A stretch of 32,118 bases of DNA, from sequence record NC_049387.1; one strand, written 5' to 3'. This DNA comes from Peduovirus P24B2. The notes beneath the pieces are model-generated. The model ran no database searches, was not told where the DNA came from, and saw only the letters and a list, made by a program, of their open reading frames with translations. Each line of letters starts with the position of its first letter. Position 1 is the stretch's first letter. The translations under genes and the position numbers were made by a program. Below are positions 187-24,900 of the stretch, piece by piece.

Positions 187-1221
187 TCAGTCGTTGTCAG
201 TGTCCAGTGAGTAGTTTTTAAAGCGGATGACTTCCTGACCGAGCCAGCCGTTTATTTCCCGAATCCTGTCCTGTAGCGGGATAAGCTCATTGCGGACAAA
301 GACCTTTGCCACTTTCTCAATATCACCCAGCGACCCGACGTTCTCCGGCTTGCCGCCCATCAACTGAAAGGGGATGCGGTGCGCGTCCAGCAGGTCAGCG
401 GCGCTGGCTTTTTTGATATTAAAAAAATCGTCCTTCGTCGCCACTTCACTGAGGGGGATAATTTTAATGCCGTCGGCTTTCCCCTGTGGGGCATAGAGAA
501 ACAGATTTTTAAAGTTGTTGCGGCCTTTCGACTTCACCATGTTTTCGCGGAGCATTTCGATATCGTTGCGATCCTGCACAGCATCAGTGACGTACATGAT
601 GTATCCGGCATGTGCGCCGTTTTCGTAATACTTGCGGCGGAACAGCGTGGCTGATTCATTCAGCCAGGCAGAGTTAAGGGCGCTGAGATATTCCGGCAGA
701 CCGTACAGCTCCTGATTAATATCCGGCTCCAGCAGGTGAAACACGGAGCCGGGCGCGAAAGGTGTCGGCTCATGGAAGGACGGCACCCACCAGTAAACAT
801 CCTCTTCCACGCCACGGCGGGTATATTTTGCCGGTGAGGTTTCCAGTCTGATGACCTTACCGGTGGTGCTGTAACGCTTTTCCAGAAACGCATTACCAAA
901 TACCAGAAAATCCAGCACAAAGCGGCTGAAATCCTGCTGGGACAGCCACGGGTGCGGGATAAACGTTGAAGCCAGAATATTACGTTTGACGTAAATCGGT
1001 GAGCTGTGATGTACGGCAGCACGCAGGCTTTTTGCCAGACCGGTAAAGCTGACCGGTGGCTCATACCATCTGCCGTTACTGATGCACTCGACGTAATCCA
1101 GAATGTCACGGCGGTCGAGTACCGGCACCGGCTCACCAAAGGTAAATGCCTCCATTTTCGGGGCGCTGGCGGTCATTGTTTTTGCCGCAGGTTGCGGTGT
1201 TTTCCCTTTTTTCTTGCTCAT
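187..1221 (-). CDS. Q: portal protein
   Basis: 344-aa ORF; length, N-terminus MSKKKGKTPQ and position next to cos match P2 gpQ; overlaps P stop by 1 nt (TGATG on minus strand). Confidence 0.9.
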   Translation of the reverse strand: MSKKKGKTPQPAAKTMTASAPKMEAFTFGEPVPVLDRRDILDYVECISNGRWYEPPVSFTGLAKSLRAAVHHSSPIYVKRNILASTFIPHPWLSQQDFSRFVLDFLVFGNAFLEKRYSTTGKVIRLETSPAKYTRRGVEEDVYWWVPSFHEPTPFAPGSVFHLLEPDINQELYGLPEYLSALNSAWLNESATLFRRKYYENGAHAGYIMYVTDAVQDRNDIEMLRENMVKSKGRNNFKNLFLYAPQGKADGIKIIPLSEVATKDDFFNIKKASAADLLDAHRIPFQLMGGKPENVGSLGDIEKVAKVFVRNELIPLQDRIREINGWLGQEVIRFKNYSLDTDND

Positions 1222-2993
1222 CAGTAAAACTCCAGAATGGTGGATGTCAGCGGGGTGCTGATACCGGCGGTGAGTGGCTCATTTAACAGGGCGTGCATGG
1301 TCGCCCAGGCGAGGTCGGCGTGGCTGGCTTCCTCGCTGCGGCTGGCCTCATAGGTGGCGCTGCGTCCGCTGCTGGTCATGGTCTTGCGGATAGCCATGAA
1401 CGAGCTGGTGATGTCGGTGGCGCTGACGTCATATTCCAGACAGCCACGGCGGATAACGTCTTTTGCCTTGAGCACCATTGCGGTTTTCATTTCCGGCGTG
1501 TAGCGGATATCGCGCGCGGCAGGATAGAACGAGCGCACGAGCTGGAACACGCCGACACCGAGGCCGGTGGCATCAATACCGATGTATTCGACGTTATATT
1601 TTTCGGTGAGTTTGCGGATGGATTCAGCCTGGGTGGCAAAGTCCATGCCTTTCCACTGGTGACGCTCAAGTATTCTGAATTTACCTCCGGCCACCACCGG
1701 CGGTGCCAGCACCACGCATCCGGCGCTGTCGCCACGGTGTGACGGGTCGTAACCAATCCATACCGGGCGGGAGCCGAACGGATTGGCGGCAAACGGCGCA
1801 TAGTCTTCCCATTCTTCCAGCGTGTCGACCATGCAGCGTTGCAGCTCCTCGAACGGGAACACCGACGCCTTGTCGTCAACAAATTCACACATGAACAGGT
1901 TTTTAAAATCGTCGGCGCTGTTTTCGCGTTTAAGCTGCTCAATGTCGAAGAGCGTGCAGCCGCCTTTCAGGGCGTCCTCAATGGTGACAATCTGCCGCCA
2001 CTGGCCGTCCGCACAGAGAAGCCCACCGGCAAGGGCGTTATGACTGACGTCGATTTCCACGCGTTCGGCGGCGCTGGCGCGTCCCCGGTTGAACAGTTCA
2101 CCCGACCAGAACGGGTAGGCGTCGTGCGCCAGCGTGGACGGGGTGGAGAAATAGGTCGAGCGCAGGTGACTCTGTGAGGCCATACCTGATGCCACCTTAC
2201 GCAGTACCTGAAAATTCGGGATCCAGAAAATCTCATCGACGTACAGGTCGCCGTTATGGCTCTGTGCGGTGTTGGAGTTGGTGCCGAGAAAAATCAGTTT
2301 TGCGCCATTATTGCCCAGGACAATCGGGTCACCGGTCAGGTCAACGTCAACCAGCCGGGCAAAGGCGATGATGTATTCGCGGAACACATACGCCTGCGTT
2401 TTACTGGCCGACAGAAAAATCTGGTTATGACCGGTTTTCAGGGCGCGCAGCAGCGCCTCGCGGGAAAAATAAAACGTCGCGCCAATCTGGCGGGATTTCA
2501 GGATATCGCGGATGCGGTGCTCAAGCCCGGCGCGATACCAGTGCAACTGATAGTCGAAAGACTGCTCAAAGAAAATCTGCTCCAGCTTTTCGATGGCCTC
2601 GTCACTGAAAAAATTCTTTTTCGGTTTGCGACGCCCGCCTTTGTTGCGGTTAGCGACGTTCGGATTAAGGTCTGCCTCGTTGCCGGTCTGACTGTAGCGG
2701 TTTACCCGTGCCAGTCGTTCAATCTGGCGTCCCAGCAGGTCAATTTCCTTGAAGTCACCGCCGGTTTTCTGCGGTTTGATGATGAGCTGGGTCAGTCGCG
2801 CTTCCAGACTCATTTCGACACGGCTGATGGGGGCAACGCTGTCCCAGCCGTCGCGCTGTTTCCAGCTCTGCACCGTCGGACGTTTCATCTGCAACATGGC
2901 GGCAATCTGCGGCACGGAAAACCCCTGCCAGTACAGCAGCGCCGCCTGACGACGCGGGTCGTGTAAAAGAGTGGTGTCTGTGGTGATGGTCAT
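1221..2993 (-). CDS. P: terminase large (ATPase) subunit
   Basis: ORF 1221..3023; start placed at internal Met (MTITTDTT...) to give about 590 aa as in P2 gpP; upstream of Q in the same leftward operon. Confidence 0.88.
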   Translation of the reverse strand: MTITTDTTLLHDPRRQAALLYWQGFSVPQIAAMLQMKRPTVQSWKQRDGWDSVAPISRVEMSLEARLTQLIIKPQKTGGDFKEIDLLGRQIERLARVNRYSQTGNEADLNPNVANRNKGGRRKPKKNFFSDEAIEKLEQIFFEQSFDYQLHWYRAGLEHRIRDILKSRQIGATFYFSREALLRALKTGHNQIFLSASKTQAYVFREYIIAFARLVDVDLTGDPIVLGNNGAKLIFLGTNSNTAQSHNGDLYVDEIFWIPNFQVLRKVASGMASQSHLRSTYFSTPSTLAHDAYPFWSGELFNRGRASAAERVEIDVSHNALAGGLLCADGQWRQIVTIEDALKGGCTLFDIEQLKRENSADDFKNLFMCEFVDDKASVFPFEELQRCMVDTLEEWEDYAPFAANPFGSRPVWIGYDPSHRGDSAGCVVLAPPVVAGGKFRILERHQWKGMDFATQAESIRKLTEKYNVEYIGIDATGLGVGVFQLVRSFYPAARDIRYTPEMKTAMVLKAKDVIRRGCLEYDVSATDITSSFMAIRKTMTSSGRSATYEASRSEEASHADLAWATMHALLNEPLTAGISTPLTSTILEFY

Positions 2994-3166
2994 GAATACC
3001 TCGCCGTGATGAATACACGGCAAGGCTACTGAGTCGCGCCCCGCGATTCGCTAAGGTGCTGTTGTGTCAGTGATAAGCCATCCGGGACTGATGGCGGAGG
3101 ATGCGCATCGTCGGGAAACTGATGCCGACATGTGACTCCTCTAATCACTATTCAGGACTCCTGACA

Positions 3167-8922: not shown

Positions 8923-9367
8923 GTTTAAGCGTTTTGAAGACCGGCTGACCGGGCTGATTGAATCACTGTCACCATCAGGGCGTCGGCGACTGAGCACCGA
9001 ACTGGCGAAACATCTGCGGCAGAGTCAGCAGCGCCGGGTGATGGCACAGAAAGCCCCGGACGGCACACCCTACGCACCACGCCAGCAGCAGAGCGCCAGA
9101 AAAAAGACCGGTCGCGTTAAGCGAAAAATGTTTGCGAAACTTATTACCAGTCGTTTTTTGCATATCCGTGCCAGCCCGGAGCAGGCATCAATGGAATTTT
9201 ACGGCGGGAAGTCGCCGAAAATCGCCAGTGTGCATCAGTTTGGTCTGTCGGAAGAAAACCGGAAAGACGGTAAGAAAATTGATTATCCGGCGCGTCCTCT
9301 GCTCGGCTTTACCGGTGAGGATGTGCAGATGATTGAAGAGATTATCCTGGCTCACCTCGACCGTTAG
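8915..9367 (+). CDS. S: tail completion protein S
   Basis: 150-aa ORF overlapping the R 3' end; P2 gpS equivalent. Confidence 0.85.
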   Translation: MNEFKRFEDRLTGLIESLSPSGRRRLSTELAKHLRQSQQRRVMAQKAPDGTPYAPRQQQSARKKTGRVKRKMFAKLITSRFLHIRASPEQASMEFYGGKSPKIASVHQFGLSEENRKDGKKIDYPARPLLGFTGEDVQMIEEIILAHLDR

Positions 9368-22883: not shown

Positions 22884-22909
22884 AGCCCCTCAGTTGAGGG
22901 GCTTTATTT
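22884..22909 (+). terminator. rho-independent terminator after ogr
   Basis: Stem agcccctc(22884-22891)/gaggggct(22896-22903), loop agtt, followed by a T-rich tract TTATTTA. Confidence 0.6.
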
Positions 22910-22910
22910 A

Positions 22911-23147
22911 TGGTCGATGTGGACGCTATGTGGACAGTGGTTGATATAAATCCATTTATATCATCAGGTTAGGTGCTTTTTTGTGACACCATCCCTGTCT
23001 TCCCCCACATGATGTGGGGGTTTTTTTTATCAATTACTTACATGCAATCAAAAGTAAAAACAGTCACTTATCGAAAGCTGTAAGGGTTTGGAGTGGTTTC
23101 AAAATTTCTTGAGTGTGGACACTATGTGGACACTCAGAGGGGGAAAT
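22911..23147. other. attP: attP region (arm-type repeats, IHF-consensus site, core candidate)
   Basis: Tandem ATGTGGAC repeats at 22917-22924 and 22928-22935, and TGTGGACA repeats at 23115-23122 and 23125-23132, flank the region; TATCAATTACTTA (23029-23041) matches the IHF consensus WATCAANNNNTTR; hairpin plus T8 at 23002-23028; abuts the int 3' end. Confidence 0.5.
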
Positions 23148-24128
23148 TTATAACGTCACTCCGCCTTTTAGTGGATTCAGAGCGACGGCATTTTGCAGGT
23201 AGTCAGGCGCAAGGTGCGCATAGGCCATCGTCTGCTGAATGCTCGCATGTCCCAGAATCTGTTGCAGTGCGATTATATTGCCCCCGTTCATCATGAAATG
23301 GCTTGCGAATGTATGCCGCAGGATGTGGGTTGCCTGATTGGGTGGTATATCAGGTTTCACTCTGCGTAAAATCCCGCAAAATTTCTCATAATCAACTTTG
23401 AATAATTTGGCGCTTGCCTCCTCTTTAACTTTTTTCTCCAGTTCCTCAGAAATCGGCACGGTTCGCTTTTTACCGTTTTTGGTTTTCAGGAAGGTAACCC
23501 TGCAATTTGTAATCTGTGCTGGTTTTAGCGTGGCAACTTCCGTCCATCTTCCTCCAGTGCTCAGACATAAAAGCGCGACAAGTAAGTCATCACCAGCCAA
23601 AACATTTAACAGTTTTTCGATTTCTGCTTTTTCCAGGAACGTCATTTCAGGGTTGGCCTCCGCCAGTGGCGGCAGTCCGTGAATTGGGTGTTGCCCGGAA
23701 AATTCATCCAATTGAATTAATTTTGTGAACATGCCGGATAATCGGTACATGTCACGGTTTATCGTTGCGGCACTGATACCATCACGTAGTCGTATGGAAC
23801 GATAATCCATCAAAGCCCTTTTGCTCATCCGGCTCACTGGTATATCACCTATGCCGCTGATGGTTTTGAGTAGATGATTAAACTCTTTTGTTCCATGCTC
23901 GTGGTTTTGCCCGTGATATTTCCACCAGATGTCCAGCAACTCACTCAAAGTTCGGCGGTCTGCTCGCTGGCCTCCCCATTCTTTCTGACTGGCATTGGCG
24001 ATTGTGTATCGCTCAAATGCTAGTGCTTCAGCTTTTCTTTCGAATTTCCTGCGGATGCGTTTTCCGTCGCGACCGCGAGGTCTAATGTCCACTTCATAGC
24101 GACCATCATCGAGCTTCTTAATTGCCAT
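23148..24128 (-). CDS. int: tyrosine integrase
   Basis: ORF 23148..24158; start placed at MAIKKLDDGRYEVDIRP; C-terminal region HxLRHTFAS...Y (catalytic-Tyr region) typical of tyrosine recombinases; P2 Int position downstream of C. Confidence 0.9.
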   Translation of the reverse strand: MAIKKLDDGRYEVDIRPRGRDGKRIRRKFERKAEALAFERYTIANASQKEWGGQRADRRTLSELLDIWWKYHGQNHEHGTKEFNHLLKTISGIGDIPVSRMSKRALMDYRSIRLRDGISAATINRDMYRLSGMFTKLIQLDEFSGQHPIHGLPPLAEANPEMTFLEKAEIEKLLNVLAGDDLLVALLCLSTGGRWTEVATLKPAQITNCRVTFLKTKNGKKRTVPISEELEKKVKEEASAKLFKVDYEKFCGILRRVKPDIPPNQATHILRHTFASHFMMNGGNIIALQQILGHASIQQTMAYAHLAPDYLQNAVALNPLKGGVTL

Positions 24129-24197
24129 AAGAAAGCCCTCCGGCGCTGTATTCACCATCTTGGTAGCAAATGGTGAAAATGTAATCTTTATATAGAG

Positions 24198-24491
24198 TTA
24201 GCCAATCCTTTTCGCGGAGTGGTTGGACTCTGTTGACTCTGGCCCAATGTGCGCGAGAGCCGGTGCGATTTGTCCTGCGTCCGGCGCGGTTTTATCTGTC
24301 ATAAGCCATAGAGCATATTTTTGGAATGTGGGATGCATAGTGATTTTTAGCAAAGCTGTGCCACCGGGTTCAAAGTTTCCTCCTTCATATTTTTTAAGTG
24401 TGCTTAGCGGTAACTCTATGATTTCACAGAATTTTGATTGGCTTAGCCCTTCAGCCTCACGCAAGGCCTTAATCTTTTCGCTTAATTTCAT
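24198..24491 (-). CDS. C: immunity repressor C
   Basis: 97-aa ORF with helix-turn-helix-like N-terminus and the segment GQIAPALAH that I recall from P2 C (99 aa); divergent from cox. Confidence 0.8.
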   Translation of the reverse strand: MKLSEKIKALREAEGLSQSKFCEIIELPLSTLKKYEGGNFEPGGTALLKITMHPTFQKYALWLMTDKTAPDAGQIAPALAHIGPESTESNHSAKRIG

Positions 24492-24627
24492 TTGACATGG
24501 TGCCTATATAGGGACTAAATTCCCTCAAAACTGGAACCTATATAGGTTCCATTGATTTGAGAATAAACCAGCGTCTAAACGGTTTTGAGTGGTTTAGAAA
24601 GGGCTGGATCCTATGAGGGTACCATAT
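24492..24627. promoter_or_regulatory. C/cox lysogeny-lysis switch region (candidate Pe/Pc promoters and operators)
   Basis: Consensus -35 TTGACA at 24492-24497 with a possible -10 CTAAAT at 24515-24520 (rightward, Pe-like); two copies of the palindrome CCTATATAGG at 24503-24512 and 24537-24546 (second inside an 18-bp perfect palindrome GGAACCTATATAGGTTCC, 24533-24550); motif GGTTTTGAGTGGTTT at 24581-24595. Confidence 0.5.
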
Positions 24628-24900
24628 ATGGACGCTGAAAATTATGTGATTCAGTATCCGCTTGATGCGGTTCATGTGGATAAATTTGCTGATTTATTAG
24701 GGAAGCCAAAGACAGCCGTCAGTGAAATGGTGAAGGCAAATAAATTACCAATTATTGAATTGCGTGATCCTTGCAAACCGAAGGCTCGTGCCGGTGAAAA
24801 ATGGGTTTTCATTCCTGAGTTTAATCGCGCTGTACGTGAGGCGTTTTATAACCGACCGGTTGAACAGCGTGATGCATGGCTTTTGTGGATGGGGTTGTGA
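24628..24900 (+). CDS. cox: Cox excisionase/repressor
   Basis: ORF 24613..24900; start placed at the second Met (MDAENYV, 90 aa) because of the better SD (GAGGG) and P2 Cox being about 91 aa; first gene of the rightward early operon. Confidence 0.75.
   Translation: MDAENYVIQYPLDAVHVDKFADLLGKPKTAVSEMVKANKLPIIELRDPCKPKARAGEKWVFIPEFNRAVREAFYNRPVEQRDAWLLWMGL

Follow-up and report, generated by a model that had tools for sequence, protein, structure and literature searches.

Tandem 10-bp repeats shared by the attP P′ arm and the lysogeny switch of a P2-like phage as predicted recognition boxes of its own Cox protein

What does it mean for a temperate phage to carry the same short sequence beside its attachment site and within its switch region? 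The window considered here is a 32,118-bp stretch of DNA (all positions given are those of the window unless another genome is named) from a P2-like phage that is ~99% identical to Yersinia phage L-413C and also to many E. coli and Salmonella prophages, with the gene order D, ogr, attP, int (minus strand), C (minus strand), switch and cox (plus strand). An earlier note on this DNA had picked out two plus-strand 16-mers, GGGTTTGGAGTGGTTT at 23084-23099 in attP and CGGTTTTGAGTGGTTT at 24580-24595 in the switch, proposing that they represent a Cox box of lineage-specific sequence acting at both sites. The two are present as described, identical at 14 of 16 positions with mismatches at positions 1 and 7, the attP copy being flanked by the core hairpin (23002-23020) on one side and by the int-proximal arm repeats TGTGGACACTATGTGGACA (23114-23132) on the other, while the switch copy has the CCTATATAGG palindromes (24503-12 and 24537-46) to its left and cox to its right. 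The motif is most likely part of a set of recognition boxes, to which binding is predicted, for the Cox protein of this phage at both the switch and attP. That one protein couples the switch to excision is textbook knowledge for P2 and the finding is therefore not surprising; a dual-site Cox operator is already known in P2 and WΦ and what differs here is the sequence.

Taken alone, the resemblance of the two 16-mers is suggestive only. In 15 of 400 dinucleotide-preserving shuffles of the 274-bp attP and 136-bp switch intergenic regions the best 16-mer match between the two was at least 14, so that the match by itself (p~0.04) is modest evidence, weak and slightly above chance. Copies scattered through the genome, which the earlier note had named as counting against a Cox box, were not found in the window, where GGTTTNGAGTGGTTT with up to two mismatches matched only the known pair (two matches versus 0.30 expected), with two or more matches seen in 3 of 100 shuffles of the window. 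When viral contigs were scanned with GGTTTNGAGTGGTTT the matches listed came mostly from unrelated contigs, as is expected by chance for 14 specified bases. The periodic core GGTTT-N5-GGTTT is found three times in the window (0.1 expected), two of which are the motif copies. The third (GGTTTTCTGCGGTTT, 2763-2777) lies within a 600-aa minus-strand ORF (1221-3023) without the flanking purines and is probably due to chance. Most close relatives have GGGTTTGGAGCGGTTT as the attP copy, which agrees with the switch copy at 13 of 16 positions. The shuffles, the third occurrence in coding sequence and the lower identity in most relatives all speak for chance similarity between two A/T- and G-rich intergenic regions that have no common function.

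The picture sharpens when both sites are read in 10-bp register. The switch then reads AAACGGTTTT / GAGTGGTTTA / GAAAGGGCTG / GATCC (24577-24611), with boxes S1-S3 occupying 24577-24606, and the 10-bp direct-repeat unit, RRNGGTTTN, is present as two boxes at attP (A1 and A2) and three at the switch (Table 1). The Cox-box reading of the earlier note stood up to this analysis while its single box did not, the original 16-mer being ~1.5 units of a 10-bp tandem direct repeat. At both sites GGTTT-N5-GGTTT forms direct repeats about one helical turn apart, as expected of a Cox operator. Near-perfect tandem repeats are seen at S1/S2 in two relatives, as AAACGGTTTC/AAACGGTTTA followed by GTAAGGGTTG in L076 and as the 10-bp units AAGCGGTTTT/AAGCGGTTTG followed by TAAGGGGTTG in L079. 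At attP, A2 reads GAGCGGTTTC in most relatives and the units homologous to A1 vary together with the Cox helix. The end of A2 is 10-13 nt from the P′ arm-type Int sites; the Cox site of P2 likewise abuts the P′ arm.

Table 1. Features of the attP and switch regions of the window
Feature	Position	Strand	Sequence	Basis or remark
ogr-proximal (P) arm-type Int sites	22918..22936	+	TGTGGACGCTATGTGGACA	repeat TGTGGACnCTATGTGGACA also at 23114
Second IHF-consensus site	22959-22971			1 mismatch to WATCAANNNNTTR
attP core region	22985..23027 (right boundary putative)	.	hairpin CCCCCACATGATGTGGGGG + T run	comparison of phage attP with host-side prophage junction
IHF-consensus site	23028..23040	+	TATCAATTACTTA	0 mismatches to WATCAANNNNTTR; kept in all WΦ-type attP
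attP box A1 (candidate)	23081..23090	+	TAAGGGTTTG	first 10-bp unit of attP copy; in block diverging from WΦ
attP box A2 (candidate)	23091..23100	+	GAGTGGTTTC	second unit, 10 bp after A1
int-proximal (P′) arm-type Int sites	23114..23132	+	TGTGGACACTATGTGGACA	direct repeat of P-arm copy
int, tyrosine integrase	23148..24158	-		Pfam Int_N + Phage_integrase
C immunity repressor	24198..24491	-		HTH_3; 56% identical to WΦ C
Pe promoter and presumed C operators	24492..24550	+	TTGACA 24492-97, TAAATT 24516-21	promoter scan and palindromes
Presumed C operators (palindromes)	24503-12 and 24537-46		CCTATATAGG	around Pe -10; sequence unrelated to motif
Switch box S1 (candidate)	24577..24586	+	AAACGGTTTT	first unit of array; aligns with WΦ repeat copy 1, CCTAGAAAGGACAGG
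Switch box S2 (candidate)	24587..24596	+	GAGTGGTTTA	same as A2 across GAGTGGTTT
Switch box S3 (candidate)	24597..24611	+	GAAAGGGCTG + conserved GATCC	degenerate third unit; aligns with WΦ repeat copy 2, CCTAGAAGGGACTGG
cox, 90 aa	24628..24900	+		recognition helix G25-P41 = GKPKTAVSEMVKANKLP

The product of cox matches Pfam Phage_Cox (PF10743, E=1e-23, 83.4 bits against a gathering cutoff of 27.5) and the P2 Cox structure 4LHF over residues 11-90 (E=3.8e-20). In L-413C the gene is annotated from an ATG equivalent to 24613 (95 aa); since relatives have stops within those five codons (24613-24627) and their products are 90 aa throughout, translation probably begins at the ATG at 24628, behind GAGGG, with S1-S3 lying 22-51 nt upstream of it. 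On the minus strand no conserved -35/-10 pair was seen by inspection of several lineages, and a consensus promoter scan returned Pe and did not recognise Pc, so that overlap of the boxes with Pc is proposed by positional analogy with P2. Directly 3′ of the boxes CTGGATC (24604-24610; the GATC is a Dam site) is kept in nearly all WΦ-family lineages despite the variation of the boxes themselves and may belong to the Cox module or serve as a Pc element or methylation site. In several lineages (L073, L085, L086, L099, L100 and others) the CTGGATC box module is separated from cox by insertions of 0.5-2 kb that carry extra ORFs, and there the boxes remain beside C and Pe rather than beside cox. The window and L-413C (L002) differ by three substitutions within 50 bp, at 24503, 24520 and 24549, the L-413C changes being GGTGCC->GGTGAC, TAAATT->TAAACT and GGTTCC->GGTTAC, all in the operator palindromes or the Pe -10. 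L-413C is a clear-plaque mutant (PMC3448106), with which these substitutions fit, and the operators of the window are presumably intact and wild-type.

On the attP side, comparison of phage attP with the host-side junction of prophages places the start of identity at GACACCATCCC, and the core is identical to that of WΦ (PMC3448106). The P and P′ arms have the layout of the Int P/P′ arm sites in the annotation of P2. At prophage junctions the core and int stay together with the boxes and arm sites, as excision requires. The IHF-consensus site at 23028..23040 does not overlap the 16-mer. Between this site and the boxes the stretch AAAACAGnnACTTAnnnAAAGCTG (23057-23082) is kept in all WΦ-type attP whatever the Cox type, and CAGTCACTTA is similar to CAATTACTTA, a part of the IHF-consensus site that lies 34 nt upstream. 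The motif was also tried as a binding site for other proteins and rejected as an IHF site, matches to WATCAANNNNTTR being found at 22959 and 23028 only, and as an arm-type Int site, the TGTGGAC repeats being separate from it.

Comparison with WΦ, the closest relative among the known Cox systems, localises the difference between the two phages. From ogr through the P arm and core, and again throughout int, identity is 95-100%, and the motif lies in one of only two divergent islands. The first (57-70% identity) is confined to 23040-23120 and comprises a ~65-bp attP block that includes the motif, while the second (42-78% identity) runs from C through the switch and the first half of cox, encoding only C and the DNA-binding half of Cox; across the second half of cox identity returns to 95-100%. 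The two phages share the same attP core and arms, the C-terminal half of Cox is identical and Int is 98% identical, though the adjoining attP block differs. The Cox recognition helix of the window differs from that of WΦ at K28E, S32V, E33K and A37E, the box core is GGTTT in the window and GGGAC in WΦ, and the two best boxes are adjacent (10 bp) in the window but 20 bp apart in WΦ.

WΦ has a shared element of its own in the same two places, the 11-mer AAGGGACTGGA being present in both the attP block and the switch. In the WΦ locus (L001) it is found at 820-840 and 2333-2346, adjoining the P′ arm sites, and it matches the WΦ Pe-Pc Cox repeat better than does the pair of TAAGAAAAC copies at WΦ 794-818. 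By a secondary account that cites Ahlgren-Berg et al. (2009), WΦ Cox recognises a 12-nt imperfect direct repeat in the Pe-Pc region (PMC5009727). The WΦ-type Cox repeat CCTAGAA(A/G)GGAC, with copies 20 bp apart, was confirmed in WΦ and is not present in the window, where the aligned positions read TCTAAACGGTTT and TTTAGAAAGGGC. Apart from the operators, the only WΦ Pe-Pc repeat of the 12-nt kind is CCTAGAAAGGACAGG/CCTAGAAGGGACTGG, 20 bp apart, and this aligns with S1 and S3. The 2009 work of Ahlgren-Berg et al. on WΦ Cox reportedly pointed to a 9-bp repeat in WΦ attP, which we take to be the two copies of TAAGAAAAC; these are core-proximal to the boxes proposed here and count against the proposed box placement.

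The conservation of Int bears directly on whether the motif might be a site for a host factor (IHF, Fis or similar) or for Int that is needed in both regions. IHF sites are present in the P2 attP arms and the two IHF-consensus matches of the window, at 22959 and 23028, are nearby. The motif itself, however, has no match to WATCAANNNNTTR, the switch contains no IHF match and the TGTGGAC repeats, which are the arm-type Int sites, lie apart from the motif; moreover, a host-factor site should not vary with immunity type while Int (98% identical) and the host remain constant. We therefore regard a host-factor or Int site as extremely unlikely. With Int so conserved, and a host factor having no cause to track immunity type, the candidates left are C and Cox.

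To compare sequences beyond WΦ, Cox loci were taken from IMG/VR, together with 30 loci sampled at one genome per species in Escherichia, Citrobacter, Kosakonia, Serratia, Photorhabdus, Xenorhabdus, Salmonella and others. Most IMG/VR prophage loci end at the int stop, without attP, and the attP side came from the genome-contig loci. Taking one lineage per distinct Cox helix gave 27 lineages, in each of which the 42 nt upstream of the int-proximal arm site were compared with the 66-nt switch block. Own attP-switch pairs matched at a mean of 10.2 of 12 positions versus 8.9 of 12 for cross-phage pairs, with none of 50,000 permutations as high, a p-value that, like that of the whole-region version of the test (1 in 20,000), overstates independence as the lineages are phylogenetically related. 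Own pairs also exceeded cross pairs in the 15 lineages whose helices differ at four or more residues. In ~19 of 29 lineages the best own-own 14-mer preceded the first int-proximal arm site by 4-27 nt in attP and, in the switch, lay at a distance of 63-116 nt from the C start. Exact own-own matches were seen in L101 (ATAAGCAGTTACAAG, 15 of 15), L098 (GAAGCGGCTACA, 12 of 12) and L085 (GAACGTTTTCAAA, 13 of 13), and the own-own matches of L041 and L045 were weak. Even so, this recurrence of own-own matching with unrelated sequences is hard to account for in another way. Own-attP/own-switch matching at the same positions, with different sequences in many lineages, and the location of the motif block in one of the two islands divergent from WΦ both speak against chance similarity, which the 27-lineage own-versus-cross permutation strongly disfavours and which we consider highly improbable.

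The boxes also track the Cox helix. Helices of the type ..EM[VI]KA[NRK]KLP are paired with the box A[AG]NGGTTT, ..MIEKNKLP with GA[AG]CCGTTT[CT]AAA and the WΦ helix ..KMVKENKLP with AAGGGAC, while the more distant helices ..MVD.GKLP and ..MIEDGKLP are paired with TAAGCnnnT units at a spacing of 10-11 bp. The Cox positions that vary (28, 32, 33 and 36) are equivalent to T25, R29, R30 and D33 of P2 Cox, of which T25 and D33 have been proposed as specificity residues and R29 and R30 studied as DNA-contacting (PMC3936717). Together the co-divergence of the attP block with the DNA-binding half of Cox, the own-own matching and the tracking of the helix back the proposal of a dual-site Cox box with a lineage-specific sequence.

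Binding of the boxes by the C repressor, for example coupling immunity to int expression or to attP function, has to be weighed at this point as C covaries with the divergent island too, being 56% identical to the C of WΦ, and the C-type repressors of P2-like phages are repeat-binding proteins (PMC1904268). The operators presumed for C, however, are the CCTATATAGG palindromes around the Pe -10, which are unrelated to the motif. In a rank regression across 34 loci, attP-box identity depended on Cox-helix identity with a beta of 0.43 and on C identity with a beta of -0.07, and restricting the regression to the 16 loci with Int at least 80% identical gave 0.47 for the helix and 0.04 for C. Two loci separate C type from box type. 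In L063 C is different (66%) and the operators are different, yet the helix is nearly identical and the attP block is the same, while in L087 C is similar (83%) and the operators are similar, yet both helix and boxes differ. On these comparisons of sequence, it is with the Cox recognition helix that the shared sequence changes and not with C; the motif was rejected as a C operator, given the palindromes and a beta for C of ~0, and binding by C is accordingly very unlikely.

Besides their phasing, their positions and their covariation with the Cox helix, the repeats of the window have homology to known Cox targets that is apparent from sequence comparison. The RefSeq record of P2 (NC_001895) gives the order Int P arm, IHF, core, Cox protein_bind (24399-24472 of that record), Int P′ arm and int, with the Pc hexamers placed 18-43 nt before the cox ATG, such that the A boxes, between core and P′ arm, and the S boxes, upstream of cox, occupy the positions of the annotated Cox site and of Pc in P2. 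The two phages thus share a Phage_Cox-family protein, as shown by the 4LHF match, and sites both between core and P′ arm and upstream of cox. P2 cox-boxes, TTAAA(G/C)NC(A/C), are found at Pc, at attP and at PLL of P4 as tandem direct repeats 10-11 bp apart (PMC3936717) and the boxes of the window are likewise tandem, but of different sequence. The earlier note had seen no likeness to the P2 cox-box and this was borne out, with TTAAASNCM (up to one mismatch, both strands) having no match in the P′ arm or the switch and a single match at 22907, in the ogr terminator. The motif was thus rejected as a P2-type cox-box, and the lack of such a box at either site fits a different Cox specificity. Each P2 site has at least six boxes, those of P2 attP face both ways and P2 Cox is said to need more than four boxes to bend DNA (PMC3936717), whereas the window shows only two recognisable boxes at attP and three at the switch, all in one orientation. 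The small number of boxes per site compared with P2 counts against the Cox reading. The recombination directionality factors 186 Apl and lambda Xis belong to another protein family and bind other sequences, but like the Cox of the window are small winged-helix proteins acting on direct repeats one helical turn apart. Lambda Xis has no switch role. 186 Apl, in contrast, binds at att as well as between the switch promoters (PMC7498355).

A further comparison comes from P4-like satellites. In P4 (L234) the 'ori type 2 repeats' at 9176-9205, upstream of vis/PLL, read CTTAAAGTCA/TTTAAAGCCA/CTTAAAGC and are three tandem 10-bp P2 cox-boxes. Among 79 P4-like satellites (Vis 97-99% identical) a ~45-bp segment ~130-175 nt upstream of the vis ATG (L235-L314) behaves as a cassette between near-identical flanks, with three versions, V1 in 32 satellites, V2 in 25 and V3 in 18. 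When reverse-complemented, V1 aligned best with the Pc/cox-box region of P2 (score 19, null maximum 13.5), while V2 and V3, both of which end in ..CTGGA, aligned best with the S1-S3-CTGGA module of the WΦ-family phage L085, CAGCCGCTAGAACGTTTTCAAACGGTTTAGAAGGGGCTGGA (scores 19.5 and 19, null maximum 14-15, none of 200 shuffles as high). Against the boxes of the window itself the cassettes scored 11, which is background level. The likeness of V2 and V3 to the L085 module supports the reading of the whole module upstream of cox, including CTGGA, as a putative Cox-response element, a support that extends to the module and not to the exact sequence of the window. The satellite cassettes may accordingly be helper-type-specific Cox response elements, as the alignments suggest; the samples of helper Cox and satellite loci (80 loci each) have only two genomes in common. 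A literature search found no paper on swappable cox-box cassettes in P4-like satellites.

The cassettes are also relevant to whether the motif might act in RNA. Leftward transcription of C and int could place both copies on one mRNA, the switch copy in its 5′ leader, provided that Pc starts rightward of 24595, and the attP copy in its 3′ UTR, 48-64 nt beyond the int stop. They would then serve a common RNA-binding factor or a processing signal. In keeping with this the copies have the same orientation and flank the C-int transcription unit, and a promoter scan that did not recognise Pc sets no limit to the leader. The covarying island, however, encodes no RNA-binding factor, and the satellite cassettes lie upstream of a promoter rather than in a shared mRNA. 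A 10-bp period, a place next to the Int arm sites and homology to the Cox DNA site in the P2 annotation all point to recognition of DNA, and an element acting at the RNA level has in our judgement only a minimal probability.

If the boxes are the sites of Cox, their arrangement suggests how the protein would act. The arrays are head-to-tail direct repeats with a 10-bp period and would offer one Cox box per helical turn to a 90-aa winged-helix protein that would be both repressor of the lysogenic promoter Pc and excision directionality factor. Cox expressed from Pe would oligomerise head-to-tail on the S boxes directly upstream of cox, bending or wrapping the DNA, and occupancy of these boxes would switch off leftward transcription of C and int from Pc, committing the phage to lysis. 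On the A boxes, with the core on one side and the P′ arm-type Int sites on the other, Cox would bend or remodel the P′ arm such that integration is disfavoured and excision from the int-proximal prophage junction favoured. For the binding by Cox as for its effects on Pc and on recombination, the argument is by analogy with P2, WΦ and 186.

A predicted recognition sequence can in this way be assigned to an uncharacterised Cox type. Of 5,426 complete E. coli genomes, 527 carry the attP block (at an identity of at least 95%) and 420 carry the switch. L-413C, which carries this Cox type, is used in plague diagnostics. The comparative data are more useful than the motif itself; the family-wide covariation of helix and box and the satellite cassettes are the more novel by-products of the analysis. 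The natural helix/box pairs, which fall into at least six classes among enterobacterial P2-like phages, provide a data set for the DNA-recognition code of winged-helix directionality factors of the Cox type and predict which residues and bases to swap. A broader reading, which we hold tentatively and with a little less than even confidence, is that Cox specificity is a modular and fast-diversifying system of which the motif is one allele, with three unlinked pieces (the Cox helix, the boxes that precede cox and a ~30-bp block of the attP P′ arm) changing together, and that satellites track this system and Cox specificity sets the pairing of helper and satellite. The satellite cassettes suggest a testable basis for the helper specificity of P4-like elements and, were the broader reading true, Cox specificity would decide which helper wakes which satellite.
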